Assembly: GCA_965207885.1 (NCBI GenBank)
Contig: OZ242311.1
Location: 1,280,001 to 1,344,000, forward strand
Reading direction: 5' to 3'
From: Candidatus Latescibacterota bacterium
Lineage (GTDB): Bacteria > Latescibacterota > UBA2968
DNA: 64,000 bases
How positions within the stretch are numbered: position 1 is the first letter of the stretch; each line of letters opens with the position of its first letter. Position numbers and translations under genes: made by a program. This document shows, in pieces, positions 17,848 through 62,148 of this stretch. The notes beneath the pieces are model-generated. The model did no database searches and was not told the origin of the DNA. It saw only the letters and a list, made by a program, of their open reading frames with translations.

Positions 17848-17860
17848 ATTGTATATCCTC

Positions 17861-48181: not shown

Positions 48182-49057
48182 CTATACCTTCACCTTCAAC
48201 GCACCCGGAACAACCTCAATCTTTGCGGGAACCTCACACATCGGTTCGCCATCGGCAAAAATCCACAAGGGATCATCGGACTCAATCTGCAAAGTTCTCG
48301 TCTGCACAACGCGCACAGCAGAATGACCAACATGAGCGCCGGAATACGCGCGCAAAAACATCCGCAAAACCGTCCAGCGCGAAACATCTGCCACAATGCA
48401 CACATCCAGCACCCCATCGTCAACAATGGCATCAGGTGCAATTTTAATCCCACTCCCATAAAAAGGCGCGTTTGCCGTTGCCGCCAGTAAAATACGCCCT
48501 TCAAAAACGCCAAAATCTCCCCTCAAACGCACAAAAGGAGATCGATATCCAGATAGTGTTCGCAAAACCGCCAGACAATAGGACGCTGTCCCACCCAATC
48601 TCGAAGGTCGAGACCGCGCCCTTTGCGCCACCACAGTATCGAAACCCAAACTCGCAACAGTCGCAAAAAATCGGTCACCCACTTTCCCCAGATCAATCGC
48701 GCGATCCACCCCATGCACCAGCGTATTGACCACATCCTTCACATCTCTGGACAAACCCAATGCCCGCGCCAAATCATTCCCCCGACCACAGGGCACAACC
48801 CCCAAAACCGCGTCTGAATTTGCAAGCCCATTGACCACCTCATGCACTGTCCCATCGCCCCCACATGCAGCAACCTGTCGCACCCCTCGCGCCAACGCTT
48901 CCCGCGCTAACCGCTCGCAATCGCCCGGTGCTCCCGACATCATCAAATCGACATATACACCGCGCTTGTGCAACAAATCCGCAACCCGCTCACCTGTACG
49001 CCTTGCACGGCCACGTCCCGAAACGGGATTTGCAATAATTGTCCAGTGATTTGACAT
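48182..49057 (-). CDS. Diacylglycerol kinase family (YegS/DagK-like) lipid kinase
   Basis: NPVSGRG, GGDGTVHEVVNG, PCGRGNDLAR, N..FYGSG and ADGE. Confidence 0.9.
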   Translation of the reverse strand: MSNHWTIIANPVSGRGRARRTGERVADLLHKRGVYVDLMMSGAPGDCERLAREALARGVRQVAACGGDGTVHEVVNGLANSDAVLGVVPCGRGNDLARALGLSRDVKDVVNTLVHGVDRAIDLGKVGDRFFATVASLGFDTVVAQRARSRPSRLGGTASYCLAVLRTLSGYRSPFVRLRGDFGVFEGRILLAATANAPFYGSGIKIAPDAIVDDGVLDVCIVADVSRWTVLRMFLRAYSGAHVGHSAVRVVQTRTLQIESDDPLWIFADGEPMCEVPAKIEVVPGALKVKV

Positions 49058-49104
49058 CAAATTAAAAAGAAAACTCATCTCATGATGAGATGAGTAAAAA
49101 TAAG

Positions 49105-50302
49105 CATGGTACACGACAAAACTTAAATTGTTTTAAACAGTGGCGGATTACTCAGTAAACGAATGCATATGAGGAACTGTTGGGTTTGTTGGTTTATATT
49201 GAGCAGGACATACTGCAAATAGTCCAACCCATATCGGAAGAGACTTTTCTCCATCCGCCCGTGATTTTTGATCGTCAAAGGATTTGTTTTTGCTATCCAT
49301 TCGCCGATGATATGCGCCCAGATGCAGGCAATGGCCAAAAGCGCGATGAGTTTCTCAATGCGGTCTTGATGTATAAGATGGGTCTCTTCCAGATTAAATC
49401 CTCGACTTTTAAGATTGGCAAAAAGGACTTCAATGCCCCATCGTTTTTTATAGGTATCCAATGCGGCTTGACCTTTTTGGTTGCTGGCAAGAATGAGGTA
49501 TTGGTCCTTCAATCTTAGTGCAGACAGATATACAGGCAGGTCATAAACGCGGTGGCGTTTGCACAAGTTGACCTGCTGATGGATATTAAGATTTTCAAAC
49601 CGTTTTCTTATGGGGATCTCTCTACCGCCTGATGAGACAAGAGCGTTTTCCTTGATGCGAATAACAAAGGGTATATTTTGTGTGTCTAACCACCTAAACC
49701 ATTCTCTTCCAATAAATTCTCTGTCTGCGACGACAACGCGGATATGCGATTTGCAGATGCAGTTGAGCATTTCTTGCATCAAATGGATACGCTCATCACT
49801 ATTGGAATTGCCCCGTTTTTTTAACAAGTGCCAACAGATAGGAAAGGCGACCCCTTCATAGATAATGCCTGCGGTTAGGATGTTGATATTGAATTTTCCC
49901 AACTTCCAATTGGTGCGATCTATTGAGACTATAAAATCCGACTTTATAGGTAATAAGTGCAAGATCAATTGTCTCACACACGCATAGGGTAAGGCAAAGT
50001 GGGCAAAGAAGCGTTGGATACGACGATAATTAGATTTCTGCTTGACGGTTCCATTGAGTGCGTTTGCCAGTTTCATAAAATTGACGCTACGCAATTTTAT
50101 CAGCGACAATATGAACGCAGCGGTAAACGTTATTCGGGCTTTATGCCAGTGAAAATATCCTTGCATAATCGTTTGAAGTTCAATAGTTTCAGGAGACATA
50201 GACCTGTGCCTTGTTAAGATGAGAAAGGTTTGTCTTGGGACATTCAAACCTAACTCTTTTTAGCTTTTTTCACAGGTCTTTTATTTTTTGTCGTGTACTA
50301 TG
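49105..50302 (-). mobile_element. Intact IS4-family insertion sequence (1198 bp)
   Basis: TIRs CATGGTACACGACAAAA (49105-49121) and CATAGTACACGACAAAA (reverse, 50286-50302), 16/17 identical. 9-bp target duplication AAAAATAAG at 49096-49104 and 50303-50311. Confidence 0.93.
49123..50199 (-). CDS. IS4-family DDE transposase
   Basis: IDRTNW, ADREF and YKKRWGIEVLFANLKS (YREK-type motif). Confidence 0.92.
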   Translation of the reverse strand: MSPETIELQTIMQGYFHWHKARITFTAAFILSLIKLRSVNFMKLANALNGTVKQKSNYRRIQRFFAHFALPYACVRQLILHLLPIKSDFIVSIDRTNWKLGKFNINILTAGIIYEGVAFPICWHLLKKRGNSNSDERIHLMQEMLNCICKSHIRVVVADREFIGREWFRWLDTQNIPFVIRIKENALVSSGGREIPIRKRFENLNIHQQVNLCKRHRVYDLPVYLSALRLKDQYLILASNQKGQAALDTYKKRWGIEVLFANLKSRGFNLEETHLIHQDRIEKLIALLAIACIWAHIIGEWIAKTNPLTIKNHGRMEKSLFRYGLDYLQYVLLNINQQTQQFLICIRLLSNPPLFKTI

Positions 50303-50432: not shown

Positions 50433-51488
50433 TTAAATCCCGAACCTCTGCTTCAATTTTTGAATCCGATTAAAAGATTCGCAAATGCGATCTTCTCCAA
50501 CAACGCCATCTGCTACCGCCTGTACAATGGCCTTTTTTACCTCGTACACCTGCTCAATATTGTATTCCCCAATCTGGTTGGCGAGCAAAATCATATCAAC
50601 ACCTGCTTTTATCGCTTCAACAACCGCTTCCGTCAGACCATACGCCTCGACAATCGCCCCCATCTGCATATCATCGGAAATAACGACCCCATCAAAGCCC
50701 ATCTCATATCTGAGGAGTCTCGTCATAATATCATACGACAAAGTTGCCGGCCTCCCACTTTTGTCGAGCCTCCGATTCACGATATGCGCGGTAAGAATCG
50801 GATCATCATAGCCTTTCTGGATAAATTTTTGATACGGCAAAAGCTCTTTAGCACGTCGGTATGTCTGTGTGACATCGGTAACACCGAGATGCGTATCGCC
50901 CGCCGCGCTTCCGTGTCCGGGAAAGTGTTTCAGCGTCGGTATCACCTGCTGTTCTTGATGCGCCATAATAAAAACATTGGCATGCGCTACCACAGCCCTC
51001 GGAACATCGCTAAACGACCGCTCTATCGCGCCAATAGCCGGACTTTTGGGATCTATATTCACATCGACAACCGGAGCAAAATTCCAGTTAATCCCCAAGT
51101 CTTTCAATTCGCGCGCAAGAGCATCTGCTACCTTTTTCGTCTTACCTGGGGACTGCCTGCCGAGTTCTTGAGCAGAAGGCACAGAAACCGAAAATTCATA
51201 TTCCTCTTTCAGTCGGTTGACATACCCACCCTCTGCGTCAACCGCGATAAAATATGACGCTATGTCCTGAAGTGCTGAGGTCAACCTGCGCAGTTGACGC
51301 GGAGACGTAATATTCCGCACCACCTCACCTTTACTCGGCAGATCATAATCAAAAAGCACAACCCCACCGGGTTGAATATCCCGCAGTAGCGCAACAATAT
51401 CCCCATATAGAACATCGCCGCGAAAACCGATCATCAGCATCTGTCCCACGGCTTCCTCTATGGAAGTTCCAAGATCATCGGGCGTCAC
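50433..51488 (-). CDS. GH3 beta-N-acetylhexosaminidase (NagZ-like)
   Basis: GQMLMIGF, AVDAEGGYVNRL, FAPVVD, KHFPGHG..GDTH and SDDMQM. GTGA overlap with the SDR stop, GGAG RBS. Confidence 0.88.
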   Translation of the reverse strand: MTPDDLGTSIEEAVGQMLMIGFRGDVLYGDIVALLRDIQPGGVVLFDYDLPSKGEVVRNITSPRQLRRLTSALQDIASYFIAVDAEGGYVNRLKEEYEFSVSVPSAQELGRQSPGKTKKVADALARELKDLGINWNFAPVVDVNIDPKSPAIGAIERSFSDVPRAVVAHANVFIMAHQEQQVIPTLKHFPGHGSAAGDTHLGVTDVTQTYRRAKELLPYQKFIQKGYDDPILTAHIVNRRLDKSGRPATLSYDIMTRLLRYEMGFDGVVISDDMQMGAIVEAYGLTEAVVEAIKAGVDMILLANQIGEYNIEQVYEVKKAIVQAVADGVVGEDRICESFNRIQKLKQRFGI

Positions 51489-52297
51489 GCCATATCTCCC
51501 AAACCCTGATCCTTCATCTTCCTCTTCACCAGCCACTCGACAATTTTGGGATGAATCACTTGAAGAAAGGGCAATGCGCGGTGGTGCCAGGGAAGCACCA
51601 ATTCGCGCTTCTGTTTTCGCATAGCTTTCAAAATTGCCCTGCAACAATATTCTACAGAAAGTGCCTCTTTATTGTGCCGCTGTGAGGAATCGCCCAGTGC
51701 TTCACCATCCTTCCCAAAAGCGCGTCGTCTCAAATTCGTCCCCTGAAGCCAATGCGGCAAAACCGTCAACACCTGCACATCTTCCACTTCCAGACGCAGA
51801 GCGTTTAAAAAACCCAGCACCGCGTGCTTTGACGCGCCATATCCCGTATGCAGAGGCACGCCAAATTTGCCCTGCAAAGATGCAATGGCCACGATCATAC
51901 CCTTCGAAACTTTCAAATGTGGCAATGCCGCGTGCACGCAATAAACCAAACCGAGATAATTGGTATCCATCAGCTTGCGAAACACCCCCAAATCTTCCAC
52001 CTCGTCAAACCGCGCCCACATACTAATCCCGGCATTGGCAATCAAATAATCTACACGACCAAATGCAGCAATCGTCGCCTCAATCAATTGTTCGCAATCT
52101 TCGACCTGTGCCACATCCCCCACCACCGTCACCACCTGTGCGCCCAAATCCCGACACTGCTCAGCCGTCTCGCTCAGCTTTCCCTCTCGCCGAGCAAACA
52201 ATGCCAGATGTGCGCCCTGCTTCGCAAGTTCCAGAGCCAACGTCGCCCCAAGTCCCGAAGACGCGCCTGTAATAATCGCTACCTTATTGCAAAACAT
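51485..52297 (-). CDS. SDR oxidoreductase, DHRS7/DHRS7B-like; candidate acyl/alkyl-DHAP reductase
   Basis: TGASSGLG, ARR (NADPH-type), NAGIS, MDTNYLG, SLQGK and YGASK. Function inferred from operon context. Confidence 0.8.
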   Translation of the reverse strand: MFCNKVAIITGASSGLGATLALELAKQGAHLALFARREGKLSETAEQCRDLGAQVVTVVGDVAQVEDCEQLIEATIAAFGRVDYLIANAGISMWARFDEVEDLGVFRKLMDTNYLGLVYCVHAALPHLKVSKGMIVAIASLQGKFGVPLHTGYGASKHAVLGFLNALRLEVEDVQVLTVLPHWLQGTNLRRRAFGKDGEALGDSSQRHNKEALSVEYCCRAILKAMRKQKRELVLPWHHRALPFLQVIHPKIVEWLVKRKMKDQGLGDMA

Positions 52298-52331
52298 CGC
52301 GCCATTCAAAATCAGTTGGTCCTTTCCATTT

Positions 52332-54164
52332 TCAATCCGCAAACGCCCCATTGCCAATGGCAAAGATATTATTTGGATCCATCGCCTTTTTCATCTGCCG
52401 CAGCACTGCAATGCTATTTTCGCTTTGAATCTGCGGCAAAAAGCCACTGCGGAGCTTGCCCACGCCGTGATGGTGCGACAAAGACCCGCCGTGGTCTAAA
52501 ATCTCCTGCCGCAGCCGGCGCTCAATCGCGTGATAAACGCCAACCGAATCCTCAAGCCCCTGCGCGCAAAAACCCATAGTAAAATAAATACACACACCCG
52601 TGTGATAGGTCTGCGTCACGCGATAGGCCAAAAAGGGCTTGCCCGGCACGCCGTATTCTTCACACAAAACAACCAACTTCTTTTCCACCGCACCAATAAC
52701 ATCGTGAATATTAGTCCACGGCACAGAAGTCTCAAATGTCTCGCCCAAAATGTGAAACTGAGTAAAAAAATCGCGAATATACGCAATCCCAAACGTCAAC
52801 ATATACCCCCGCTCGCCCCTGTGCGCTCCGCCCGAAATACCACCGTATTTCTTCGCCAAACGAAAAATCGTCTTTGCCTGCTGCCGGACCTCGTCTTTTG
52901 TGCCTTCCATCACAATCGTACACGCCACCAACTGCTCTGGATCAAATCCCTTGACCTTAACCAAAAAAAATTGCTGAATATCCTGCTGGAGCTTCTTGAA
53001 TCCTTTTACCTCGGGCTTCAGCGCCTGCCCAAGCTGTAATTCCGTATTGTTCACCAGCCGAATACTCGCCGGAACTTGCCCTGTCTGCCGAAGTGCCTTT
53101 AAGTAAGCCACACCCCGTTCAAATGACGGAAACACCAGCGAGCCAAACTCCTGTGCTTCGGGCTGTTTATGGATCTTTATCGTCGCCCGGGTAATAATCC
53201 CCAAATTGCCCTCGCTACCAAACAAAAACGACCTGGGCTGCACACCTGTCGAATTGCGCGGCGTCGCATGGTGTGTCTTCACCTCCCCCGTCGGCGTCAC
53301 CAGCGTGGCCTCTATCACAATATCCTCAATATTGCCATACCGGTTCTTTTTCATACCACTGGCATTGGTCGCAATCCATCCCCCCAGAGTTGAAAACTCC
53401 AGACTATCGGGATCGTGTCCCGATGTGTATCCCAACTCATTCAGCGCAATCTCCAATTGCTTACCCGAAATACCCGCCTGCACACACGCTTGAAAATTCT
53501 CTTCATCCACCTGCACAATGCGATTCATGCGACGCATATCCACCGACGCGACCATCCGCGTCTCCGAAGTCGGAATTGCGAGCGCACCGCTCACATTCGT
53601 CCCACCACCATAGGGCACCAGCGCCACATTGTGGTCATTTGCAAGCTGGATAATAGCCTGAATATCCGCTTCTTCCTCTGGAAACAACACCACATCCACC
53701 AGACGTTCGGGCGGTCGATGGTACAAAATTTGATACACCTCATCCACGCTCAACTGCCCATGACTATGCACCAGACGCTCTATGTCCTCCTGAGAAACCC
53801 CATCTTCATTGAGCGCATCGCGCACCGCCCTCAAAAATTCATCATTTGCCACGGGCGCGGGCAAATCGCGGTGCTCGACCTCTTGCCCCATATCTTCGGG
53901 ACGGACCGGCACATTGAGCACCCCTTCGACAAAAGGCAAAAAATACGGCATCCGATAGCCACATAACGGATACCGCGTTCCCGTCACATGCACGGTCCTG
54001 TCATCGTCAAACTCAAACCGCGTATCCTTATACCCCCACTTGTGTGCAAACCGCTCGCCTTCTGCCCCCTCAGAAAAACGGTCTTTACTGGCAAAAGCGC
54101 GACGCCCTCGAACGAACAAAAATATCAACACCAGTAAAAAAGCGACAACCATCAGTTCATTCAT
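52332..54164 (-). CDS. Alkyl-dihydroxyacetonephosphate synthase (AGPS), FAD-linked, with N-terminal TM anchor
   Basis: KWGYKD, PYGGGTNVSGAL, GHDPDSLEFSTLGGWIATNASGMKKNRYGNIED, GSEGNLG, PASIRL, FETSVPW, RVTQTY..GVCIYF and GGSLSHHHGVGKLR. Confidence 0.9.
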   Translation of the reverse strand: MNELMVVAFLLVLIFLFVRGRRAFASKDRFSEGAEGERFAHKWGYKDTRFEFDDDRTVHVTGTRYPLCGYRMPYFLPFVEGVLNVPVRPEDMGQEVEHRDLPAPVANDEFLRAVRDALNEDGVSQEDIERLVHSHGQLSVDEVYQILYHRPPERLVDVVLFPEEEADIQAIIQLANDHNVALVPYGGGTNVSGALAIPTSETRMVASVDMRRMNRIVQVDEENFQACVQAGISGKQLEIALNELGYTSGHDPDSLEFSTLGGWIATNASGMKKNRYGNIEDIVIEATLVTPTGEVKTHHATPRNSTGVQPRSFLFGSEGNLGIITRATIKIHKQPEAQEFGSLVFPSFERGVAYLKALRQTGQVPASIRLVNNTELQLGQALKPEVKGFKKLQQDIQQFFLVKVKGFDPEQLVACTIVMEGTKDEVRQQAKTIFRLAKKYGGISGGAHRGERGYMLTFGIAYIRDFFTQFHILGETFETSVPWTNIHDVIGAVEKKLVVLCEEYGVPGKPFLAYRVTQTYHTGVCIYFTMGFCAQGLEDSVGVYHAIERRLRQEILDHGGSLSHHHGVGKLRSGFLPQIQSENSIAVLRQMKKAMDPNNIFAIGNGAFAD

Positions 54165-54179
54165 TTCACACCTCAATTT

Positions 54180-56120
54180 TCACGACTCTTCCGGATTCAA
54201 CAACGTCGCAATATGCACCGCTTGAAACAGCGCGGCAGCCTCGGACTGAATCCGCAGCGACCGTCTTTTGGGCAGTAAAGTCGTCTCCCCCAACATGGGC
54301 GGTGAGACCCACACATTGACCTGCCCCGGATTGATATTAATATTGCCCTTTGGACACTTGGGCCACAGCGCGTGAAGCCCGCGGTACGCAATCGGCACAA
54401 TCACCACATCCTGGGGCAATTGTGCAAACACTCCGTGTTGAAGCGGAAATTGCTGAACCGCAAAAGCAGCGGTCGTCGCCATGGGATAAATAACGCCCGG
54501 ACGCTCTGTCAATGCCTGTGCCACGCGCTGTGTCGTATGGCCCGCAGCACGGGATCGCTCGAGCATCACATAGCCATCGACATTTTCCAGAATCTGATCA
54601 AAAACCTCAGACGTCATCCCAAACTGCGTGATCTGTTTCGACCCAATTTTGATACCCGAGCGCGCCAGCCCAGTACGCGCCAGAATCACACAAGGTTCGG
54701 GTCTTTCCCATCCCATCGCATTCATAAACTCTCGAGACTGCAAAACTTTGTACAAAACGGGATGGTCAAACAAACTCTGATGCGTTGGCAAAAAGATAAG
54801 ACGCCGATCTTCTGCATCGGCTCCCAAATCTCGTACAATGGCTTCAAAATGGGGATCGATATAAACGTTGACGCGAATATCAAAAATATCCAGCGTGCGA
54901 CGTCCCCAATCGAGCCAGGTGCGCCATCCGGCTTCGCGGCGACGGATGGGATCGACTTCTCTTTCCAACAATTTCTTTTTTTGACGTCCTATCTTGAGCG
55001 AAGTCCCCATCCACCGGGCAAAACGCATTCCTCGCTGCAACTTTGAAAATTGCCCCCGACGTCCGACATTGGGATATTCCAAAAATCGTCCCCGTGCCGT
55101 ATCTGCGAGCAAAGCGGGAATTTCCATACGCGAAACACTTTGTCCAACACGATCGATTTGCGCGTTCACATCGCATATTAGCTTAACCGACAAATCAATC
55201 ATATCCCGCGTCAAATAACTATATTCCTGCCCATACCAATACAACCTGGGACGCAGCCTGGTGGGATCTTCCTGATGCGCGTGCAAAAATTCAATCAACA
55301 GCGCCTTGATGTCCAGCACATCATCATCTATCCCATCCGCATCCACATCGTCGCGCAACTGCGCCAAAGCCACCTCCGCATCCACAATAACCTTCCACAC
55401 CGACACGCCAAACCAGCCAAAATTCGTCAAATAATTATACCGCGTTGACAGCAACCCTCCCGCGGCGATCAAATTGAGCGTGCGCTGTGCCACATCTTGC
55501 AGCAAATCACGCAAAGATCCCTCAATCCGCTCGCCATCTCGTTCACAACTGTACTCCTCGGCCCAGTGCGCATCCTCATCCGCCTCCACATTGTCAAGCG
55601 CCTCTGCAACAGCGCGGGCGTGCGACATTGGCACTTGTGTAATATGCACCTGAGCCAATGCCTCTTCCACGGCTTCGGGCGCGTGTAGCTCCGCCTGTGC
55701 CAGAGCCTTCAAATACAGGGATTGATACAACCTCAAAAAATCTTTCGCATCCCCGCGGCCTCGCTCGACAAATTGTCGCCTGAGTTGCAAATAAATTCGG
55801 CTGCCCAGGTGATATTGCGGAAGCAACTCCGCAAAAGGACGATACGCCTCGTCCAAACGCTCATCGCGAACCTCGGGCAAGCCTTGAAAAATCGCATCCA
55901 CAAGCTGTGCGCGAAATTGCAGCGCCTCCATATCCATCGCACCGCTCTGACTTTTGGGCCAGACAAGCGCATCTGGATCGAGACCGTCAAAATAGCCATC
56001 ATGACGCACCGCTTCGAGCATAAGCTGAACCGATTGGTCATAAATAGCTAACATCTGCTCCAGATCGTCGAGCAGTGTTTCGTGCAATGGACGAGTATCC
56101 GATCTATCGCGTGAGGTCAT
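54180..56120 (-). CDS. Glycerolipid acyltransferase (HX4D) with large unknown N-terminal domain; candidate DHAP acyltransferase
   Basis: Block I LIFLPTHQSLFD, block II GYVMLER, block III IYPMATT and block IV VVIVPIAY. Confidence 0.7.
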   Translation of the reverse strand: MTSRDRSDTRPLHETLLDDLEQMLAIYDQSVQLMLEAVRHDGYFDGLDPDALVWPKSQSGAMDMEALQFRAQLVDAIFQGLPEVRDERLDEAYRPFAELLPQYHLGSRIYLQLRRQFVERGRGDAKDFLRLYQSLYLKALAQAELHAPEAVEEALAQVHITQVPMSHARAVAEALDNVEADEDAHWAEEYSCERDGERIEGSLRDLLQDVAQRTLNLIAAGGLLSTRYNYLTNFGWFGVSVWKVIVDAEVALAQLRDDVDADGIDDDVLDIKALLIEFLHAHQEDPTRLRPRLYWYGQEYSYLTRDMIDLSVKLICDVNAQIDRVGQSVSRMEIPALLADTARGRFLEYPNVGRRGQFSKLQRGMRFARWMGTSLKIGRQKKKLLEREVDPIRRREAGWRTWLDWGRRTLDIFDIRVNVYIDPHFEAIVRDLGADAEDRRLIFLPTHQSLFDHPVLYKVLQSREFMNAMGWERPEPCVILARTGLARSGIKIGSKQITQFGMTSEVFDQILENVDGYVMLERSRAAGHTTQRVAQALTERPGVIYPMATTAAFAVQQFPLQHGVFAQLPQDVVIVPIAYRGLHALWPKCPKGNININPGQVNVWVSPPMLGETTLLPKRRSLRIQSEAAALFQAVHIATLLNPEES

Positions 56121-56129
56121 GGGAGAAGC

Positions 56130-57734
56130 CTAAACACCTGTCTTGAGCACATGGCGTTGCAAGCCGGGAATGTGAACCTCTTTTACGTAAGAGGGCCAAT
56201 TGATGCGCGAAACATCACAATTAAAAATTTCTCTATCTTCTGCATCCATGCTGTCAAACAACTGATTCATATTGTCGTTTTGAAATACGCAATCCAGAGA
56301 AATATAAGAACCATAAATATCGGTAAGCGACAGCGTATTTTCCAAAGTGGCATTCAAAATCGACAAATGGCGTTTCTGCTTTGAAATATCGACCAGAGGC
56401 ACCAAATTCAGTGCCCGTTGCAAAATTTTGAGGGGCAACAAATACTTATAGCGCAACTTTCGACGAAATTGTGACAGCGTCGGATAGGTCCACGGCGTCA
56501 CCGCAATGGGTTTGCCATTGCGGTCTCGCATTGGATTGTTCACAAAATACTCGTACACATACTGGACGACCTCACCTACCTTCACCGGATTCTTTGCACT
56601 TGTTGTCACATGGTAAACCTTCAAATCGGCATTTTCATGGATGGAAGGCAAAACACCGATAATCACATTGATAATAATATCCACGGGAATAACGTCTAAA
56701 ACCGCTTCTGGACGCGCGGGAAAATCCGTCAAACGCCCCTTGCCGTAGTGTACAATAAGTGGATCGGCCACTTTTAGCCCTTCCAGCCATCCCGGTTCTG
56801 GATCGGACAAACTGCTCTCAATAATAGAAGGGCGCACGATCACAGTTGGCAAATCGCCCCGGGTCTTGGCAACCATCTGCTCGCCCATGGCCTTGGTAAA
56901 AGAATAACTGTCGTGCCAGCCCAACTCTCGCCCGCGCTTTATCCCGCGTGCCACCATCCGTTCTCGCACCCATCGCTGGCGCAAAGCCTCCAACTGGTGT
57001 TCCCGCCGATGCGCTGTAACGCGCTTGCCCCGGTCCTGTCGGTCGAGTAAACGCGTGAATTCCGCAAACCGCTCCGGACTTCGCGACGCCGCCTCTACTT
57101 CGCGGCTATACGCCAGAATACCTTCAATTTCAGAATCCAGACTATAATCGGGCGCGCGACCATTTCCCATTTGTTGTGCCACCGTTTGATCGGGCACGGG
57201 CGCGTCTTCAGAAATGATCCGCTTTTGCCGTCCATTGACATAAGCCGTTGAAACATGCACGAGCACGGCATCGCGACACGCCTTGGCAAATTCGACAACG
57301 CGCCTGGCCCCAAGCGTATTTTGCATCAGCGCCGTATCCAGAGGCGCGTCGAAAACCACATTGGCTGCGCTGTTAATCACAATATCGACTTCACTGGCCA
57401 ACTGTGCATATGTCTCGGCGTCCATGCCGAGGTGATCTTGTGTCAAATCGCTCGGCACCGCAATGACTTTTTCGCGCATCACAAAGTCAAAACGATCCCC
57501 GAGTTTTGCGCGCAATCGCGCAAAAGCACTGGATTGCAAAATCTCCCTTTGCAGCCGGTCTTCGGCACTAATGGGCTTGCCCCCTCCCCGCCTTTGAGGG
57601 CGCACCATAAGATAAATGCGCCCAACATCTGGCGCATGGCAAAGGATTTTCCCCACCAATCCCTTGGCCAAAAAACCAGTTGCACCCGTAACAAAAAGAA
57701 CCTTGTGGTTCAAAAATGGAATAACAACACTCAT
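56130..57734 (-). CDS. Alcohol-forming fatty acyl-CoA/ACP reductase (FAR; NAD_binding_4 + Sterile domain)
   Basis: TGATGFLAK, NSAANVVFD, HVSTAYVNG, SYSFTKAMGE, IVRPSIIES, DVIPVD and FNCDVSRINW..HIPGL. Confidence 0.9.
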   Translation of the reverse strand: MSVVIPFLNHKVLFVTGATGFLAKGLVGKILCHAPDVGRIYLMVRPQRRGGGKPISAEDRLQREILQSSAFARLRAKLGDRFDFVMREKVIAVPSDLTQDHLGMDAETYAQLASEVDIVINSAANVVFDAPLDTALMQNTLGARRVVEFAKACRDAVLVHVSTAYVNGRQKRIISEDAPVPDQTVAQQMGNGRAPDYSLDSEIEGILAYSREVEAASRSPERFAEFTRLLDRQDRGKRVTAHRREHQLEALRQRWVRERMVARGIKRGRELGWHDSYSFTKAMGEQMVAKTRGDLPTVIVRPSIIESSLSDPEPGWLEGLKVADPLIVHYGKGRLTDFPARPEAVLDVIPVDIIINVIIGVLPSIHENADLKVYHVTTSAKNPVKVGEVVQYVYEYFVNNPMRDRNGKPIAVTPWTYPTLSQFRRKLRYKYLLPLKILQRALNLVPLVDISKQKRHLSILNATLENTLSLTDIYGSYISLDCVFQNDNMNQLFDSMDAEDREIFNCDVSRINWPSYVKEVHIPGLQRHVLKTGV

Positions 57735-57795
57735 AAAAGACCCCGGTATCCACAAAAAAAATTAAAACGCAACAGCACTAAAAACCACCTTCCCA

Positions 57796-57824
57796 ATTAA
57801 AGGAGTCCATTGGACTTATGTCAA
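57796..57824 (-). promoter_or_regulatory. Putative sigma70 promoter for the FAR-AGPS operon
   Basis: TTGACA-17 nt-TTTAAT (imperfect -10). Confidence 0.4.
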
Positions 57825-57872
57825 CCTCTTTCTCGCGCAGTTCACAAGCGCAAATCCTTATCAAAAATGGGG

Positions 57873-57901
57873 TTGACAAAAAAAAGCCCAACTCCTATCT
57901 T
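57873..57901 (+). promoter_or_regulatory. sigma70 promoter for the ndk-fab operon
   Basis: TTGACA-17 nt-TATCTT (same -10 hexamer as the aromatic operon promoter). Confidence 0.65.
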
Positions 57902-57951
57902 GTCCATCTTCAAGCCGATACAAGCCGTATTTCTCACATGGAATTTTATGC

Positions 57952-58350
57952 ATGGAACGCACCCTGCTCATCGTCAAACCCGACGCTGTTGCACAAAATG
58001 TAATCGGTGAAATCATTCGCCGTCTCGAAGAAAAAAATTTTCGAATTGTAAATCTGGAAATGGTTCGCCTCACGCGCCAACAGGCCGCCGAATTTTATAC
58101 AGTACATCGCCAACGGCCTTTTTACAACGACCTGCTCGATTTTATGACCTCTGGCCCCTGTGTGCCCGTGGCACTTGAGCGGGACAATGCCGTTGCATTT
58201 TTGCGCGAGGCCATTGGCAGCACCAATCCCGAAGAAGCCGCAGAAGGCACCATTCGCAAAGACTTTGCAACCAATATTCAAAACAATGCCGTACACGCCT
58301 CAGATTCACTGGAAAACGCAGCCAAAGAAGTGGCTTTCTTTTTTGGGTAA
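57952..58350 (+). CDS. ndk: Nucleoside diphosphate kinase
   Basis: ERTLLIVKPDAV, FMTSGP, GTIR and NAVHASDS. Confidence 0.97.
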   Translation: MERTLLIVKPDAVAQNVIGEIIRRLEEKNFRIVNLEMVRLTRQQAAEFYTVHRQRPFYNDLLDFMTSGPCVPVALERDNAVAFLREAIGSTNPEEAAEGTIRKDFATNIQNNAVHASDSLENAAKEVAFFFG

Positions 58351-58367
58351 AAGAGATCACCTAACTT

Positions 58368-58883
58368 ATGAAAATCGACCTGAGAGATATACAGGAAGGC
58401 GAAACCGAATTTGCGTTTGAAGAAACGCCAGCCGACCTGCACATTACCGAAGAAGACTCCCAATTTGCAGGTGCCATCAACACCCGTCTCGTCGTGTACA
58501 AATACGGCGACTCGCTCTCGGCCAAAGGGCAAACCACCTGTCTGGTGCGCCCCGAATGCGCGCGGTGCCTGGAACCCATCGAATTTCCCATCGTCATCTC
58601 ATACACATTCATCTTTCAAAAGGGTCGTCCCGACCAGATGGACGATGACGATGACGAAACGCTGATCTGGCTCAATGAAGAACCCGGCGAAATAGACCTT
58701 GGCAATGACGTAAAAGATTATATTTTGCTTGAACTACCCATGATCCCAACCTGCGCTGCATCGCCTTCTGGCCCTTGTGAACGCTATGAGCAAGATCCCC
58801 ACGAATTGCTGGAATACGAGCGTGAAAAGAGCCCTGACCCGCGTTGGGATGCTCTCCGCGCACTCAAAGAAAGCGAACAGTAA
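58368..58883 (+). CDS. yceD: YceD/DUF177 family protein
   Basis: CARCL, IDL..ILLELPM and DPRWDAL. Lies upstream of rpmF. Confidence 0.88.
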   Translation: MKIDLRDIQEGETEFAFEETPADLHITEEDSQFAGAINTRLVVYKYGDSLSAKGQTTCLVRPECARCLEPIEFPIVISYTFIFQKGRPDQMDDDDDETLIWLNEEPGEIDLGNDVKDYILLELPMIPTCAASPSGPCERYEQDPHELLEYEREKSPDPRWDALRALKESEQ

Positions 58884-58912
58884 ACAGAGCATTAATCAAA
58901 AAGGATACCACC

Positions 58913-59095
58913 ATGGCCAACCCCAAACGAAAAAGTTCAAATTCTCGCACCGGTAAACGCCGTGCCAATTGGAAATTGCGTTTACCCACCTTTAACGAAT
59001 GCCCCAACTGCGGGTATCAAAAAATACCCCATCGGGTCTGTGGAAATTGCGGTTATTACAATGGGCGCGAAGTGATTGAAACCGATGGCTTTTAG
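58913..59095 (+). CDS. rpmF: 50S ribosomal protein L32
   Basis: MANPKRKSS..CPNCG..PHRVCGNCGYY. Confidence 0.96.
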   Translation: MANPKRKSSNSRTGKRRANWKLRLPTFNECPNCGYQKIPHRVCGNCGYYNGREVIETDGF

Positions 59096-59139
59096 TTTGG
59101 TCTAACACCGCGCAGACTTTGAGGAGCAGAGTAATTATC

Positions 59140-60132
59140 ATGTATCCCCTTACAGCCACTATCAGCGGGGTGGGGCACTACGTCCCAGAACAAAAGCTGA
59201 CCAATGCCGACCTCGAAAAAATGGTCGATACATCCGACGAGTGGATCACTTCCCGCACAGGCATTAAAGAACGCCGCATCCTCAACGAGGGGTTGGGCAC
59301 ATCTTTTATGGCTCTAAAATCTATGGAAGCCATTCTGCACAACAAAGGACTCGATGCCAGAGATATCGACTTGATCATCGTTGCGACCATCACCCCCGAC
59401 ATGGTATTTCCGTCATCAGCCTGTCTGGTACAGGACCAAATTGGTGCCACAAATGCCTGGGCTTTCGACCTATCGGCAGCATGTAGCGGTTTTCTATATG
59501 CCCTAATGGTGGGAGGGCAATTTGTTGAAACGGGCGCACACAAACGCGTGGTCGTCATTGGGGCCGACAAAATGAGCAGCATCACAGACTACACCGACCG
59601 CGAGACCTGTGTGCTCTTTGGCGATGGCGCGGGCGCGGTTTTACTCGAACCCGGCGAACCCGGTTTGGGGCTTAAAGACTTTATTCTCTATTCTGATGGC
59701 AGCGGCGTAAAACATCTGCGACAACCCGCTGGCGGCAGTCTGCTTCCGGCCTCTCGTGAAACCGTTGATAAGAAAATGCACTATATTTATCAAGATGGTC
59801 GCGAAGTTTTCAAATTTGCAGTTCCCAAGATGGCCGAAGTTTCCGCTCAAATCCTCGAACGCAACGGCCTTGTCGGCAAAGACATCGCGCTTTTTGTGCC
59901 ACATCAGGCCAACAAGCGCATTATCGACGCCTGTGTTAAACGCACAGATATACCTAAAGATCGCGTTGTAGTCAATATCGACCGCTATGCCAACACCTCG
60001 GCTGCCACTATTCCCATTGGCCTGTCTGAAGCAGTCGAACAGGGCCGTCTCAGCCGCGGTGACAATGTGCTGCTCGCCAGTGCCGGTGCGGGATATACCT
60101 GGGGCAGCACCCTGCTAACCTGGGCTTATTAA
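59140..60132 (+). CDS. fabH: Beta-ketoacyl-ACP synthase III
   Basis: DTSDEWI, AACSGF, FGDGAGA, PHQAN and NTSAATIP. Confidence 0.97.
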   Translation: MYPLTATISGVGHYVPEQKLTNADLEKMVDTSDEWITSRTGIKERRILNEGLGTSFMALKSMEAILHNKGLDARDIDLIIVATITPDMVFPSSACLVQDQIGATNAWAFDLSAACSGFLYALMVGGQFVETGAHKRVVVIGADKMSSITDYTDRETCVLFGDGAGAVLLEPGEPGLGLKDFILYSDGSGVKHLRQPAGGSLLPASRETVDKKMHYIYQDGREVFKFAVPKMAEVSAQILERNGLVGKDIALFVPHQANKRIIDACVKRTDIPKDRVVVNIDRYANTSAATIPIGLSEAVEQGRLSRGDNVLLASAGAGYTWGSTLLTWAY

Positions 60133-61050
60133 ATGACAAAAAAAGCTTTCCTATTTCCAGGGCAAGGCTCCCAATTTGTTGGCATGGGATACGACCTGTA
60201 CAGGGCCGCACCAGAAGCGCACAAAATTTTTGATCTTGCCGACGATGTGCTCGACATAGACATCAAATCATTCTGCTTTAGCGGTCCTGCCGAGTCACTC
60301 AAACAAACCGCAGTCACACAACCGGCAATTTTTGCCCACAGCATTGCCGCTCTTGAAGTACTTAAAAGCCGGGGACTGAAACCCGACCTCGTGGCGGGAC
60401 ACAGTGTCGGAGAACTCGCCGCCCTCGTTGCAGCAGGTGTCATGCGCGTCGAAGACGGCTTTCGGGTCGTCAGCGTTCGCGGACATGCCATGCAAGTCGC
60501 GGGAAAAATTCGGCCAGGCACCATGGCTGCAGTGCTCGGTCTCGACGACGACGTAATGATTCGTCTTTGCGCTGACCTCAGTTCTTCGGGCCATGTTACA
60601 ACAGCCAATTTCAATTGCCCCGGGCAAGTGGTCCTATCTGGCGAGGAAAATGCCGTTGACGAAGCACTCGAAAAAGCCAAAGCACTGGGAGCCAAACGCG
60701 CCGTGCTCTTGCCCGTAGGCGGCGCATTTCACTCGGCCCTGATGCAGCCAGCCGTAACAGCACTGACCGATATACTCGACGATGTGCCATTTGCTCAAGC
60801 GCAAATTCCCGTAATACCCAATGTCACTGCTGAATCCACACGCGATCCAGATCTGCTCAAAGACCTGTTGATCGAGCAAGTTATTTCGCCGGTTCGCTGG
60901 ACCGAATCCATGCAACGACTCATTGCAGAAGGCATGACCGAAGCCCTCGAAGTGGGGCCAGGCAATGTACTCAAAGGACTCCTGCGCCGAATTGACCGAA
61001 ATATTCCAGTCCACGAAGCCGGCACATTGGAAGCTATAGAACAACTTTAG
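60133..61050 (+). CDS. fabD: Malonyl-CoA-ACP transacylase
   Basis: FPGQGSQ, TQPAI, GHSVGE and GAFHS. Confidence 0.97.
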   Translation: MTKKAFLFPGQGSQFVGMGYDLYRAAPEAHKIFDLADDVLDIDIKSFCFSGPAESLKQTAVTQPAIFAHSIAALEVLKSRGLKPDLVAGHSVGELAALVAAGVMRVEDGFRVVSVRGHAMQVAGKIRPGTMAAVLGLDDDVMIRLCADLSSSGHVTTANFNCPGQVVLSGEENAVDEALEKAKALGAKRAVLLPVGGAFHSALMQPAVTALTDILDDVPFAQAQIPVIPNVTAESTRDPDLLKDLLIEQVISPVRWTESMQRLIAEGMTEALEVGPGNVLKGLLRRIDRNIPVHEAGTLEAIEQL

Positions 61051-61077
61051 AGTGTTCAACTAACAGGTAACCATCCC

Positions 61078-61824
61078 ATGAACCGACTCACAGGTAAAAC
61101 AGCCCTTGTAACGGGCGGATCCCGCGGCATTGGCGAGGCCATTGCCCTGCGCCTTGCACGCGAAGGGGCCAACATCGCCGTATGTGCCAGCCAAAGCACA
61201 GAAGCTGCAGAAGCAGTGGCCGAAAAAATCCGCGCACAAGGCCGTGAAGCCCTTGTACAACAGACCGATGTCTCCAATGCCGAATCTGTTGAATCCCTTG
61301 TCGAAACCGTCCTCGACACCTGGGGCAAAATCGATGTGCTCGTCAACAATGCGGGTATCACCCGCGACAATTTGTTGATGCGTATGAAAGAAGACGAGTG
61401 GGATGCAGTTCTTGACGTCAATCTCAAAGGTGCGTACCATTGTATCAAAGCCGTCACCCGTCCCATGATGAGAGCGCGAGCCGGTCGCATCATCAATGTC
61501 TCATCGGTCGTGGGGCTTCTGGGCAATGCAGGGCAGATCAATTACGCCGCATCCAAATCGGGTCTTATTGGCCTGACCAAATCCGTAGCCAGGGAATTGG
61601 CCAGCCGCAATATTACGGCCAACGCCATTGCGCCCGGTTTTATTCCAACGGACATGACCGCCAAACTCAACGACAAAATACAAGAACAGTTGATCGCACA
61701 GATTCCACTGGGCAAACTCGGCAGTCCCGAAGATGTCGCCGCTGCCGCAGCCTTTCTCGCTTCTGATGACGCGGCCTATATTACCGGACAGGTTCTCGTT
61801 GTCGATGGCGGAATGGTGATGTAA
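61078..61824 (+). CDS. fabG: 3-oxoacyl-ACP reductase
   Basis: TGGSRGIG, NNAGITRD and NYAASK. Confidence 0.96.
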   Translation: MNRLTGKTALVTGGSRGIGEAIALRLAREGANIAVCASQSTEAAEAVAEKIRAQGREALVQQTDVSNAESVESLVETVLDTWGKIDVLVNNAGITRDNLLMRMKEDEWDAVLDVNLKGAYHCIKAVTRPMMRARAGRIINVSSVVGLLGNAGQINYAASKSGLIGLTKSVARELASRNITANAIAPGFIPTDMTAKLNDKIQEQLIAQIPLGKLGSPEDVAAAAAFLASDDAAYITGQVLVVDGGMVM

Positions 61825-61858
61825 ATAATCACTACACACTAATCACGGAGGGCTTCAC

Positions 61859-62098
61859 ATGACCGATGATATTCAACAAAAAGTTACTGACCTGATCGTT
61901 GACCAACTCGGCGTTGATGCCGATAGCGTCAATGCCGACGCCCATTTTATTGACGATCTGGGCGCAGACTCGCTCGACACAGTCGAATTGGTCATGGCTT
62001 TCGAAGAAGAATTTGACATGGAAATTTCCGATGAAGACGCCGAGAAGCTCGAAACAGTTGGCGATGCCATCGCATACTTAGACGAGCGTCTGGATTAA
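61859..62098 (+). CDS. acpP: Acyl carrier protein
   Basis: [20 protein letters not shown]. Confidence 0.98.
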
Positions 62099-62106
62099 CT
62101 CGGAAA

Positions 62107-62137: not shown

Positions 62138-62148
62138 GAGGTCATTTA

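Follow-up and report, generated by a model that had tools for sequence, protein, structure and literature searches.

A four-gene operon in the window, the whole 64,000-nucleotide stretch of DNA that was analyzed, likely encodes an aerobic ether-lipid pathway that depends on AGPS, in its Latescibacterota form, judging by its sequence. A fatty acyl reductase (FAR), by its family, would convert a fatty acyl thioester into a fatty alcohol, and a 646-amino-acid acyltransferase-like protein (AT) would acylate dihydroxyacetone phosphate (DHAP) at sn-1. The alkyl-DHAP synthase (AGPS), by its close orthology, would then swap the acyl group for the alcohol to give 1-O-alkyl-DHAP, and AGPS exchange is known to proceed via a flavin-N5 adduct (PMC3509576). 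An SDR, placed in the pathway by linkage, would reduce the C2 keto group to yield 1-O-alkyl-sn-glycerol-3-phosphate, which would be acylated at sn-2 by the single PlsC-type enzyme of the genome, encoded elsewhere. A YegS/DgkB-type lipid kinase would re-phosphorylate alkyl(acyl)glycerols. The same four-step route to 1-O-alkyl-sn-glycerol-3-phosphate had been proposed in a preliminary description of the sequence; it is the best explanation of the FAR and AGPS homology and the SDR linkage, with the acyltransferase step weakly assigned.

Layout and conservation of the operon

The features of the locus are as follows.

56130..57734, minus strand: FAR gene (534 aa), ATG start; predicted fatty alcohol supplier
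54180..56120, minus strand: acyltransferase-like gene (AT, 646 aa); predicted sn-1 (DHAP) acyltransferase
52332..54164, minus strand: AGPS gene (610 aa), alkyl-DHAP synthase; hydrophobic N-terminal segment
51485..52297, minus strand: SDR gene (270 aa), classical SDR; predicted acyl/alkyl-DHAP reductase
50433..51488, minus strand: GH3 / NagZ-like glycosidase gene (Glyco_hydro_3, 1.1e-63), after SDR
49123..50247, minus strand: IS4-type DDE transposase (DDE_Tnp_1, 4.6e-16), between GH3 and the lipid kinase
48182..49114, minus strand: YegS/DgkB-family lipid kinase gene (DAGK_cat, 5.1e-33; YegS_C, 3.8e-39)
57735..57951, no strand: intergenic region between the divergent FAR and ndk genes
57952..63399, plus strand: ndk-yceD-rpmF-fabH-fabD-fabG-acpP-fabF cluster (Pfam matches), divergent from the operon

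The tight, co-directional spacing reported earlier was confirmed at exact coordinates: all four genes lie on the minus strand and are separated by 9 nt (FAR/AT, 56121-56129), 15 nt (AT/AGPS, 54165-54179), and 34 nt (AGPS/SDR, 52298-52331). A translation check gave M as the first codon of all four open reading frames at the ATG starts used. Alternative in-frame upstream TTG starts are present at 57755, 54176, and 52363 and would shrink gaps or make genes overlap.

The order FAR-AT-AGPS-SDR was found in 14 of 15 genome loci retrieved with AGPS as the query, the kind of synteny that the preliminary description had suggested searching for. Furthermore, AT was adjoined by FAR and/or AGPS in 19 of 78 metagenome loci retrieved with AT as the query, at identities down to 46%. 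Because the same order recurs in genome and metagenome loci, the four-gene arrangement exceeds chance. The relatives are Latescibacterota, in line with the FCB-type lineage guessed previously. The host is a sponge-associated Latescibacterota bacterium, and its genome is a single contig that is 97% complete.

In two studies, sponge RNA libraries yielded contigs that covered parts of all four operon genes, and a single 3.6-kb contig from a relative at 93% identity covered both FAR and AT; such contigs may include DNA and are not proof of a single transcript. RNA-library contigs from two studies stop near 57738. Simple scans for promoters (20 sites versus 14.2 +/- 4.0) and terminators (18 versus 15.8 +/- 4.3) performed no better than on shuffled sequences, and a sigma-70-like site at 57873-57901, from scan counts not above shuffles, points toward ndk.

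A candidate GTG start of the GH3 gene at 51488 overlaps the SDR stop codon as GTGA. GH3 follows SDR in 13 of the 15 genome loci (exceptions, L013 and L015) and in none of the metagenome loci (E<=1e-8), where the kinase, if seen, follows SDR; the GH3 gene is a passenger present in near relatives only. The IS4-type transposase had no match in any of the loci L001-L015. The lipid kinase scored 178.4 bits against TIGR00147 (cut-off, 118.65) and follows SDR in metagenome loci L017-L020, L023, L027, L035, L042, and L059; a kinase of this YegS/DgkB type usually completes the unit after SDR, as its fifth gene. The kinase is also the last gene of an alternative FAR-AT-HAD-ZnADH-LarN unit. On the divergent side, the fab cluster matched the Pfam families NDK, YceD, Ribosomal_L32p, ACP_syn_III, Acyl_transf_1, adh_short_C2, PP-binding, and ketoacyl-synt; rpmF is followed by fabH without an intervening plsX. 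The same divergent neighbors were found in L001-L012, L017, L026, L028, L035, and L106-L108.

Identification of FAR, AGPS, and SDR

The identities of FAR and AGPS are well supported by homology. FAR is a full-length protein that matched the Pfam families NAD_binding_4 (2.9e-65) and Sterile (the FAR C-terminal domain, 1.3e-15) and PDB entry 7eoz, "Fatty acyl-CoA reductase," with an E value of 4.1e-89, in agreement with its earlier naming as a fatty acyl reductase. It is the sole strong NAD_binding_4 match in the genome (next best, 5.9e-14), and FAR is present in 115 of the 151 phylum genomes sampled. AGPS contains FAD_binding_4 (1.7e-39) and FAD-oxidase_C (3.9e-38) domains. In phmmer searches, its residues 46-606 aligned onto residues 95-653 of guinea-pig AGPS (4bby; E value, 3e-153), and Dictyostelium AGPS was matched with an E value of 2.4e-88.

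Were the flavoprotein instead a D-lactate/glycolate-type oxidase, the cluster would be unrelated to ether lipids. This is consistent with a sub-threshold match to NCBIfam GlcD (170.9 bits; cut-off, 567.9) and with the only name given to its relatives by NCBI, "FAD-binding oxidoreductase." However, glycolate oxidase, the best non-AGPS flavoprotein, reached only 1.6e-24 and D-lactate dehydrogenase 3.8e-24, while the 4bby alignment extends through the AGPS-specific part that precedes the FAD domain. At the positions matching guinea-pig R419, R515, Y578, and H615-617, the bacterial protein has the same residues, and JGI names its relatives alkyldihydroxyacetonephosphate synthase. We regard an oxidase as scarcely credible, and the original call of an alkyl-DHAP synthase stands.

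The SDR matched adh_short (3.2e-47) and NCBIfam PRK06181 (302.8 bits; cut-off, 215), and its best matches among solved structures are clavaldehyde dehydrogenase and 11-beta-HSD1. Its family matches and public names are generic only. An orthologue was found in 105 of 151 phylum genomes, none of them without AGPS, and lay <=3 kb from AGPS in 96 of the 105. This strict co-occurrence and adjacency bear out its proposed role as a pathway partner, and its linkage to AGPS predicts an acyl/alkyl-DHAP reductase.

A divergent putative acyltransferase

AT is predicted to be an sn-1 (DHAP) acyltransferase, a weak assignment and the least secure in the operon. An N-terminal part of ~400 aa is followed by an acyltransferase-like HX4[D/E] domain of ~250 aa that has diverged strongly. 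No Pfam or NCBIfam family scored over its cut-off; PF01553 matched residues 438-579 below threshold (13.7 bits; cut-off, 23), over almost all of the model, and sub-threshold PF01553 matches were seen in 8 of 26 family members. The motif THQSLFDH occupies residues 446-453. Across the family (PTHQS..[D/E]H), His447 is invariant and the Asp of the HX4D motif is replaced by Glu in several members; motif III (YPMGTT) is without the usual Glu and Arg. Alignment of residues 400-646 with 31 PlsC-type sequences in hhalign placed motifs I-IV in register (E value, 0.0018; probability, 14.6%), compared with an E value of 0.42 for a control with the N-terminal part. When 1.84 billion proteins were searched exhaustively by profile, HMMER gave no bridge from AT to any canonical acyltransferase and delimited a narrow family (63 matches, about 7 full-length 50% clusters), and a PDB profile search with AT found nothing. 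Its relatives are annotated "hypothetical." The only other acyltransferase in the genome is PlsC-like and lies beside cmk. The earlier label of HX4D acyltransferase thus holds for the motif but not for detectable GNPAT/GPAT homology, given the PF01553 score; similarly, "eukaryote-type" is apt for FAR and AGPS and not demonstrable for AT and SDR.

Distribution of AT and loss of the canonical route

The phylum sample of 151 genomes included 114 from families f1-f4, the class of the window, and 36 from other families. FAR, AT, AGPS, and SDR were all concentrated in f1-f4: AT was found in 115 of the 151 genomes (among them 113 of the 114 in f1-f4, and G000) and AGPS in 109. Within f1-f4, PlsY and GpsA were each found in 0 of 114 genomes and PlsX scored over its cut-off in 1 of 114, while the other families keep PlsY (29/36), GpsA (29/36), and PlsX (33/36). 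Across the 151 genomes, AT occurs in a mirror-image pattern to PlsY and GpsA. None of PlsY, PlsX, PlsB, and GpsA was found in the window's 97%-complete, single-contig genome. Because neither PlsY nor GpsA was found in the class, PlsX was nearly absent there, and the genome showed no PlsB, AT is probably the general sn-1 acyltransferase of the lineage and not an ether-only enzyme; it may be the only one and may act on DHAP.

AT could alternatively be a housekeeping G3P acyltransferase that replaced PlsX/PlsY non-orthologously, with acyl-DHAP supplied by a side activity or another enzyme. AT lies <=3 kb from AGPS in 26 of 28 f1 and 18 of 19 f2 genomes but is adjacent to it in 0 of the 58 f3 genomes having both, where AGPS-SDR and FAR/AT lie apart, and eight genomes have AT with AGPS and SDR not found; linkage alone therefore does not prove ether or DHAP specificity. 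Unrelated genes neighbor AT in many metagenome loci, and the enzyme that AT mirrors, PlsY, is itself a G3P acyltransferase. GlpK is present in the genome (723.6 bits; cut-off, 498), so G3P could be obtained from glycerol and used by AT. Nevertheless, the enzyme that makes G3P de novo, GpsA, was found in none of the 114 genomes of this clade, and AGPS requires acyl-DHAP in a genome whose acyltransferases are AT and one PlsC-type enzyme. Six of the eight AGPS-negative genomes carry a Zn-ADH-containing module (directly after FAR-AT in G003 and G102), which fits the need for a reductase after acylation, and G020 retains PlsX, PlsY, and GpsA, yet has AT within a FAR-AT-AGPS-SDR operon. We therefore consider a G3P-specific AT unlikely.

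Pairs of FAR and an acyltransferase produce wax esters in other bacteria, and FAR and AT might serve storage or signaling by forming such esters or neutral alkyl lipids, with AGPS-SDR as a separate downstream unit. The separation of these pairs in f3 is compatible with this. Ether lipids of Myxococcus xanthus are partly neutral developmental lipids (PMC9131029). However, AT aligns weakly with glycerolipid acyltransferase motifs and has no wax-synthase Pfam match, its mirroring of PlsX/PlsY/GpsA loss points to membrane phospholipid synthesis, and the short gaps and the order kept across two families favor one unit, making wax-ester synthesis very improbable.

Comparison with known systems

The novelty first claimed for an AGPS-type operon was overstated. 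The M. xanthus operon MXAN_1676-1675-1674 encodes AGPS, a fusion of FAR with an acyltransferase, and a member of an NAD-dependent reductase family (PMC9131029). Of 92 Latescibacterota MAGs, 67 were reported to have agps homologues (PMC11868695), and such homologues are also reported from sponge Latescibacterota MAGs (bioRxiv 10.64898/2026.06.23.733905). In both operons, AGPS and FAR are joined by an acyltransferase and by a gene of an NAD(P)-dependent reductase family, mirroring the animal FAR/GNPAT/AGPS steps. Here FAR and the acyltransferase have a gene each, and there they are fused; the acyltransferase here comes from another family, which is unannotated and falls short of the PF01553 cut-off; and the reductase here is of the classical SDR type (adh_short), not of the epimerase/dehydratase family as there. 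The order here is FAR-AT-AGPS-SDR, usually followed by the lipid kinase, in a host clade that shows neither PlsY nor GpsA and hardly any PlsX. A further difference is that PEDS1/CarF was not found here, in a search without a positive control anywhere; the expected products are therefore alkyl (plasmanyl) lipids and not plasmalogens.

The animal peroxisomal pathway comprises FAR1, GNPAT, AGPS, the acyl/alkyl-DHAP reductase PexRAP/DHRS7B, and alkylglycerol kinase (PMC9131029). The predicted chemistry and step order are the same, AGPS is a close orthologue, FAR shares the two-domain architecture, and the lipid kinase parallels the alkylglycerol kinase salvage step. In contrast, the bacterium has no organelle or PTS signal, AGPS having a hydrophobic N terminus instead; AT is no detectable GNPAT homologue; and no desaturase was found (the same uncontrolled PEDS1 search), so plasmalogen is not expected.

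Family f3 encodes a 1429-aa fusion of FAR, AMP-binding, and PF01553 acyltransferase domains adjoining a YegS-type kinase, in which no ACP domain scored at E<=0.001. By domain content, it recalls the FAR, acyl-activating, and acyltransferase domains of myxobacterial ElbD (PMC9131029); such a fusion is absent from the window's genome, in which only one true FAR was found. The anaerobic PlsA/PlsR and Ger routes also yield bacterial sn-1 ether bonds, but by wholly different chemistry, the reduction of an existing ester.

Relative to the PlsX/PlsY and GpsA (and PlsB) route, AT appears to fill the first-acylation slot, although it has no sequence relation to PlsX or PlsY and is predicted to acylate DHAP, the reduction coming afterward, whereas the GpsA route uses G3P made by GpsA. 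The lack of any PlsY or GpsA match and the near-absence of PlsX in the class, together with a mirrored AT family, are apparently new within the literature searched. In this bacterium, AT seems to stand in for the enzymes by which bacteria usually begin phospholipid synthesis.

Gene order and surroundings

The preliminary description had reported four tightly spaced, codirectional genes. These were confirmed as head-to-tail open reading frames on the minus strand, with gaps of 9, 15 and 34 nt; longer TTG-started versions of the frames are possible alongside the ATG starts. The operon and the two genes that follow it are:

56130-57734, minus strand, fatty acyl reductase (FAR), 534 aa, ATG start
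54180-56120, minus strand, acyltransferase-like protein (AT), 646 aa, ATG start
52332-54164, minus strand, alkyl-DHAP synthase (AGPS), 610 aa, ATG start
51485-52297, minus strand, SDR, 270 aa, ATG start
50433-51488, minus strand, NagZ-like GH3 gene, candidate GTG start overlapping the SDR stop (GTGA)
49123-50247, minus strand, IS4-family DDE transposase, between the GH3 gene and a lipid kinase gene

The genome is a single contig of 6.23 Mb (97% complete, 5% contaminated). Its nearest public relatives are metagenome-assembled genomes (MAGs) labelled Candidatus Latescibacterota, so that the earlier placement in an FCB-type lineage was correct. In metagenome loci of more distant relatives, the gene immediately after the SDR is a YegS/DgkB-type lipid kinase; in the window, the GH3 gene and the IS4 transposase intervene. 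The transposase was seen in none of the 15 related genome loci, and in this strain its insertion may have uncoupled kinase and operon. A 10-pair hairpin (49095-49073) lies at the end of the transposase gene. The GH3 gene, which has no obvious tie to lipid synthesis, follows the SDR in near relatives only (13/15 genome loci, 0 metagenome loci).

Upstream of FAR, and divergent from it, lies ndk-yceD-rpmF-fabH-fabD-fabG-acpP-fabF. In bacteria, plsX is usually found between rpmF and fabH; here fabH directly follows rpmF (58844-59140), and the missing plsX matches its absence from the whole genome. Promoter and terminator scans gave counts not above those of shuffled sequences.

RNA-library contigs

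In two studies, sponge RNA libraries yielded contigs that cover portions of all four operon genes, several of them 99-100% identical to the window; one 3.6-kb contig, from a 93%-identical relative, spans FAR and AT. Since RNA libraries can contain DNA and such contigs do not prove a single transcript, they hint at expression and at a sponge-associated habitat. Three contigs that start at 56099-56111 fall short of bridging the FAR/AT junction under a 31-letter rule; no conclusion is drawn from them or from uncovered parts of the stretch. For the RNA-library runs X4-X18, shares below 0.2 were left out. At 57738, close upstream of the FAR start, contigs from both studies stop, and others start at 57938, close upstream of ndk; their loose ends are unlike the window and might mark transcript ends or strain variation in the intergenic region between the two divergent genes.

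FAR, AGPS and SDR

The first, third and fourth genes had been described from the sequence as encoding a fatty acyl reductase, an alkyl-DHAP synthase and an SDR, and all three assignments held. FAR carries NAD_binding_4 (PF07993, 2.9e-65, residues 22-365) and the FAR C-terminal "Sterile" domain (PF03015, 1.3e-15, residues 465-538), and matches a solved fatty acyl-CoA reductase (PDB 7eoz) with an E value of 4.1e-89. With both domains of the alcohol-forming fatty acyl reductases, it is predicted to carry out the four-electron reduction to the alcohol with acyl-CoA or acyl-ACP as substrate, and it is the sole strong member of its family in the genome.

AGPS has the VAO-type pair FAD_binding_4 (PF01565, 1.7e-39) and FAD-oxidase_C (PF02913, 3.9e-38). 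It matches the guinea-pig AGPS structure 4bby at 3e-153 (query 46-606 on chain residues 95-653) and Dictyostelium AGPS, 2uuu, at 2.4e-88. Y527, R369, R464 and H564-566 of the window's protein stand as Y, R, R and HHH opposite guinea-pig Y578, R419, R515 and H615-617. The Tyr and two Arg we take to be the equivalents of Dictyostelium Y508, R352 and R447, and the His-His-His loop presumably has a functional role in AGPS. In the cited part of PMC3509576, mutagenesis of the Dictyostelium enzyme points to the catalytic Tyr Y508 and to Arg R352 and R447, and an extra N-terminal domain is described as peculiar to AGPS; because the alignment spans residues 46-606, it includes this domain. The best non-AGPS flavoproteins, glycolate oxidase (1.6e-24) and D-lactate dehydrogenase (~1e-24), align only from query residue ~155-162. 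A D-lactate/glycolate-type oxidase, the alternative for a flavoprotein of this type, is therefore very unlikely, given the AGPS match of 3e-153 and the conserved R, R, Y and HHH. We assign the protein as an AGPS (EC 2.5.1.26), predicted to exchange the acyl chain of acyl-DHAP for a fatty alcohol. AGPS homologues abound in public data: of 8000 proteins scored, 5258 match at E≤1e-50, including Poribacteria at 64% identity.

The first 26 residues of AGPS comprise a hydrophobic stretch, VVAFLLVLIFLFV, followed by RGRR, and look like a membrane anchor. Animal AGPS carries a peroxisomal targeting presequence at its N-terminus.

The fourth gene product is a classical SDR (adh_short, 3.2e-47; PRK06181 above cut-off), with TGASSGLG, ANAG and YGASK in its translation (classical TGxxxGxG, NNAG-like and YxxxK). 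Among solved structures it is closest to clavaldehyde dehydrogenase (3.3e-29) and 11-beta-HSD1 (~5e-25), and neither these nor the public names give it a specific annotation.

The acyltransferase-like protein

AT is the problem case of the operon. No Pfam or NCBIfam family scored above cut-off. PF01553, the Pfam family of the GNPAT, GPAT and PlsB-PlsC acyltransferases, reached 13.7 bits (E 0.054) against a cut-off of 23, and was also sub-threshold in 8 of 26 aligned family members (E≤1, best 0.014), over model positions 13-131 of 132. His447, in the motif PTHQS..[D/E]H, is invariant in the 26 sequences, and the Asp of HX4D is D or E. When AT residues 400-646 were aligned by hhalign with 31 PlsC-type sequences of the phylum, an E value of 0.0018 was obtained over 146 columns, with a probability of only 14.6%; motifs I-IV aligned in register, with motif III reading YPMGTT versus the usual FPEGTR. 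The N-terminal 399 residues, used as a control, gave an E value of 0.42. The 31-sequence alignment supersedes one of the AT family with a single fused acyltransferase domain (E 0.023, probability 2%).

When 1.84 billion representative proteins were searched with a HMMER profile, 63 hits were returned, ~7 of them full-length clusters and none above 665 aa, and no canonical acyltransferase was among them. AT relatives are ~650-aa "hypothetical proteins". Apart from one odd hit, the protein P0180, which was spurious and unrelated, all hits were members of the AT family or fragments. Searches of the PDB with the AT protein and with the family profile gave chance matches only, and the N-terminal ~400 residues matched nothing. 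In the ESM Atlas, a homologue of AT (P0046) met acyltransferase-named clusters only at 0.89, a value that counts as a lead only. Long open frames around AT in one phylum genome (G110) resemble high-GC artefacts more than fusions. The exhaustive search gave no AT hit above 665 aa, so that it records no fused form.

For the HX4D acyltransferase that had been proposed, the invariant His and the low-probability alignment of motifs I-IV point in its direction, but PF01553 stayed below its cut-off, and the searches of the 1.84 billion proteins and of the PDB gave no bridge to canonical members. The last 250 residues are predicted to form a divergent acyltransferase domain, the weakest of the four assignments.

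Conservation of the operon

The four genes co-occur in related genomes, with FAR-AT-AGPS-SDR order in 14 of the 15 genome loci retrieved with AGPS (only alignments that spanned over half of the query were used); in the fifteenth, L013, just AGPS and SDR are present. Metagenome and phylum loci were annotated with alignments of more than 80 query residues (more than 60 for the 78 metagenome loci retrieved with the AT family). FAR and/or AGPS stand beside AT in 19 of these 78, with AT identities as low as 46%. In the remaining 59, many of which extend 7 kb to either side, neither FAR nor AGPS adjoins AT, and its neighbors there are unrelated (Gfo/Idh/MocA, MR/MLE, alanine racemase, PhyH).

Gene occurrence was then taken from an even sample of 151 phylum genomes, in which f1 to f4 are the families of the window's class; as the sampled genomes are kin, the counts reflect few evolutionary events, not 151 independent trials.

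Occurrence of the four operon genes among 151 phylum genomes
FAR: 115 genomes; f1 29/29, f2 19/19, f3 61/64, f4 2/2, others 3/36
AT: 115 genomes; f1 29/29, f2 19/19, f3 62/64, f4 2/2, others 2/36
AGPS: 109 genomes; f1 27/29, f2 19/19, f3 60/64, f4 1/2, others 1/36
SDR orthologue: 105 genomes; f1 27/29, f2 19/19, f3 57/64, f4 0/2, others 1/36

AT and AGPS lie within 3 kb of each other in f1 (26/28), f2 (18/19) and f4 (1/1), also in G020, a genome outside the class, and in none of 58 f3 genomes. FAR-AT-AGPS-SDR is one conserved unit in part of the clade. AGPS and the SDR are no more than 3 kb apart in 96 of the 105 genomes with both (f3, 51/57), and the SDR is never found without AGPS among the 151 genomes; this pair is therefore the constant core. 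The four genomes with AGPS and no SDR comprise two fragmentary or split matches and two whose only match is a diverged AGPS-like gene with an SDR-like gene behind it, described below. The pairing is the best available argument for the SDR as the alkyl-DHAP reductase. Acyl/alkyl-DHAP reductases (EC 1.1.1.101) include DHRS7B/PexRAP and Ayr1.

Several loci depart from this arrangement. FAR of f3 genomes lies mostly within a ~1400-aa open frame; in one of them (G120, L118 5314-9603), a 1429-aa fusion joins FAR (NAD_binding_4 and Sterile), an AMP-binding enzyme and a canonical PF01553 acyltransferase. The fusion gene and a YegS-type lipid kinase gene are transcribed divergently, and lgt comes after the fusion. 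In L005, a two-ORF cassette (9842-10695; 187 and 97 aa, 4-nt overlap) lies between AGPS and SDR and may be a small mobile or toxin-antitoxin-like pair. The AGPS-SDR gap measures 0.7-1.0 kb in L006, L007, L009-L011 and L014; the window has no such gap. A second, diverged AGPS-like gene, at 45-47% identity and with an SDR-like gene (29-33%) behind it, occurs in L153 (2470-11268; G107, f4), L109 and L021, and may represent a distinct AGPS subtype. In G107, an AMP-binding enzyme, FAR and AT precede it, and a HAD hydrolase follows.

Missing PlsX, PlsY and GpsA

No PlsY, PlsX, PlsB or GpsA, the usual bacterial glycerolipid entry enzymes, was found in the window's genome, with controls positive in 8, 9, 2 and 10 of 14 reference genomes, respectively. 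Its single PlsC-type acyltransferase gene lies beside cmk. The same pattern extends across the class:

Occurrence of the entry enzymes among sampled genomes
PlsY: f1-f4 0/114; other families 29/36
GpsA: f1-f4 0/114; other families 29/36, adjoining plsY
PlsX over cut-off: f1-f4 1/114 (a strong hit in G126, a genome with 7% contamination); other families 33/36

In G102, PlsX gave a weak hit of 24.4 bits, below cut-off. The AT family is distributed as the mirror image of PlsY, GpsA and PlsX, in 113 of 114 f1-f4 genomes versus 2 of 36 others. There are two exceptions: G003 has AT and none of PlsY, GpsA and PlsX, while G020 keeps all three together with AT inside a FAR-AT-AGPS-SDR operon. The latter sits on a 7-kb contig (L152, G020:C112); the complete unit may have been acquired laterally, or its presence may reflect a binning artefact.

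The most economical interpretation is that the AT family took over the first glycerolipid acylation. With no de novo synthesis of glycerol 3-phosphate (G3P) and an AGPS that requires acyl-DHAP, AT would use DHAP as its acceptor. A strict DHAP-only reading is weakened by a bona fide GlpK in the window's genome and by eight genomes with AT in which AGPS and the SDR were not found.

An alternative module behind FAR-AT

A Zn-dependent dehydrogenase orthologue (ZnADH) was found in 7 of the 151 genomes (G003, G100, G102, G108, G127, G136 and G015). The first six are also six of the eight AT-positive genomes in which AGPS was not found; the other two, G049 and G054, are fragmented f1 assemblies. The arrangement is seen in two phylum genomes and in two metagenome contigs:

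L099 (G003), 7060-18612, FAR-AT-HAD-ZnADH-LarN-like(-YegS-type kinase)
L157 (G102), 6473-14319, FAR-AT-HAD-ZnADH-LarN-like(-YegS-type kinase)
L025 (metagenome), 4535-12058, FAR-AT-HAD-ZnADH-LarN-like(-kinase)
L037 (metagenome), 211-10221, FAR-AT-HAD-ZnADH-LarN-like(-kinase)

The HAD-ZnADH-LarA_N-like unit sits where AGPS-SDR sits in the window. AGPS-SDR and HAD-ZnADH-LarN look like alternative modules behind FAR-AT, each with a reductase, which would fit the need for a reductase after acylation. FAR-AT-HAD-ZnADH-LarN may be an AGPS-independent ether or acyl-DHAP-reducing module.

Proposed pathway and relation to known systems

The mechanism that we consider most likely, and hold with good though not full confidence, is one in which FAR and AT, as a DHAP acyltransferase, would act first, followed by AGPS and then by the SDR, giving 1-O-alkyl-sn-G3P; PlsC would follow, with the lipid kinase serving salvage. 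A search for the ether-lipid desaturase PEDS1 (PF10520) gave 0/1 and 0/151 genomes, with a control positive in no genome, and says nothing on absence.

A wider reading, which we put forward tentatively and hold somewhat short of probable, is a class-wide switch to a DHAP-first phospholipid pathway through a new ~650-aa acyltransferase family, in place of the universal bacterial entry in which GpsA makes G3P and PlsX/PlsY or PlsB acylates it. The family would acylate DHAP, so that the glycerolipid backbone would be built the peroxisomal way. Reduction of the keto group would come only after this acylation, through the AGPS-linked SDR in most genomes and through the Zn-dependent dehydrogenase of FAR-AT-HAD-ZnADH-LarN in the remaining ones. 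As FAR is class-wide, ether lipids would then be a default membrane component and not an accessory one.

The AGPS route in bacteria is established in Myxococcus xanthus, where an operon noted in 2006 and tested in 2014 comprises MXAN_1676 (AGPS, ~42% identical to the human enzyme), MXAN_1675 (FAR1-like and GNPAT-like) and MXAN_1674 (NAD-dependent epimerase/dehydratase family), as summarized in the cited part of PMC9131029. Like MXAN_1676-1674, the operon in the window groups AGPS with genes for FAR, an acyltransferase and an NAD(P)-dependent reductase; unlike in M. xanthus, its genes are unfused, and its acyltransferase and reductase families differ. Three further sources are relevant in their cited parts: PMC13012113 reports single genes from several phyla and the full set of four from 73 genomes in six phyla, PMC11868695 reports agps homologues in 67 of 92 Latescibacterota MAGs, and bioRxiv 10.64898/2026.06.23.733905 reports them in sponge Latescibacterota MAGs. 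The core idea of the preliminary description, a four-step ether-lipid operon, is therefore not new in kind: its function was read largely correctly, the acyltransferase is its weakest step, and its novelty was overstated. Literature searches on Latescibacterota ether-lipid operons, and on bacterial enzymes described as acyl-DHAP reductase or DHAP acyltransferase, returned only the papers cited here. In the literature searched, supplementary tables aside, we did not find described the unfused five-gene unit, the strict AGPS-SDR pairing, the unannotated AT family and its complementarity with PlsX/PlsY/GpsA, or the alternative Zn-ADH module.

Ether lipids are central to the "lipid divide" and to the debate on the origin of the eukaryotic plasmalogen pathway (cited part of PMC13012113). 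The present findings extend the AGPS route beyond Myxococcota, as a compact and conserved operon of abundant sponge and marine symbionts. They also suggest candidates for two parts that the bacterial pathway still lacks: an alkyl-DHAP reductase, always accompanying AGPS, and a DHAP acyltransferase from an unannotated family. If the DHAP-first reading is true, surveys for GNPAT homologues would miss the AT family, and if the class is truly without GpsA, PlsX and PlsY, it would offer a rare bacterium whose phospholipid backbone enters as DHAP. If true, the findings would provide a gene set for reconstituting bacterial alkyl-glycerolipid synthesis, and environmental monoalkyl glycerol ethers would become assignable to their producers.
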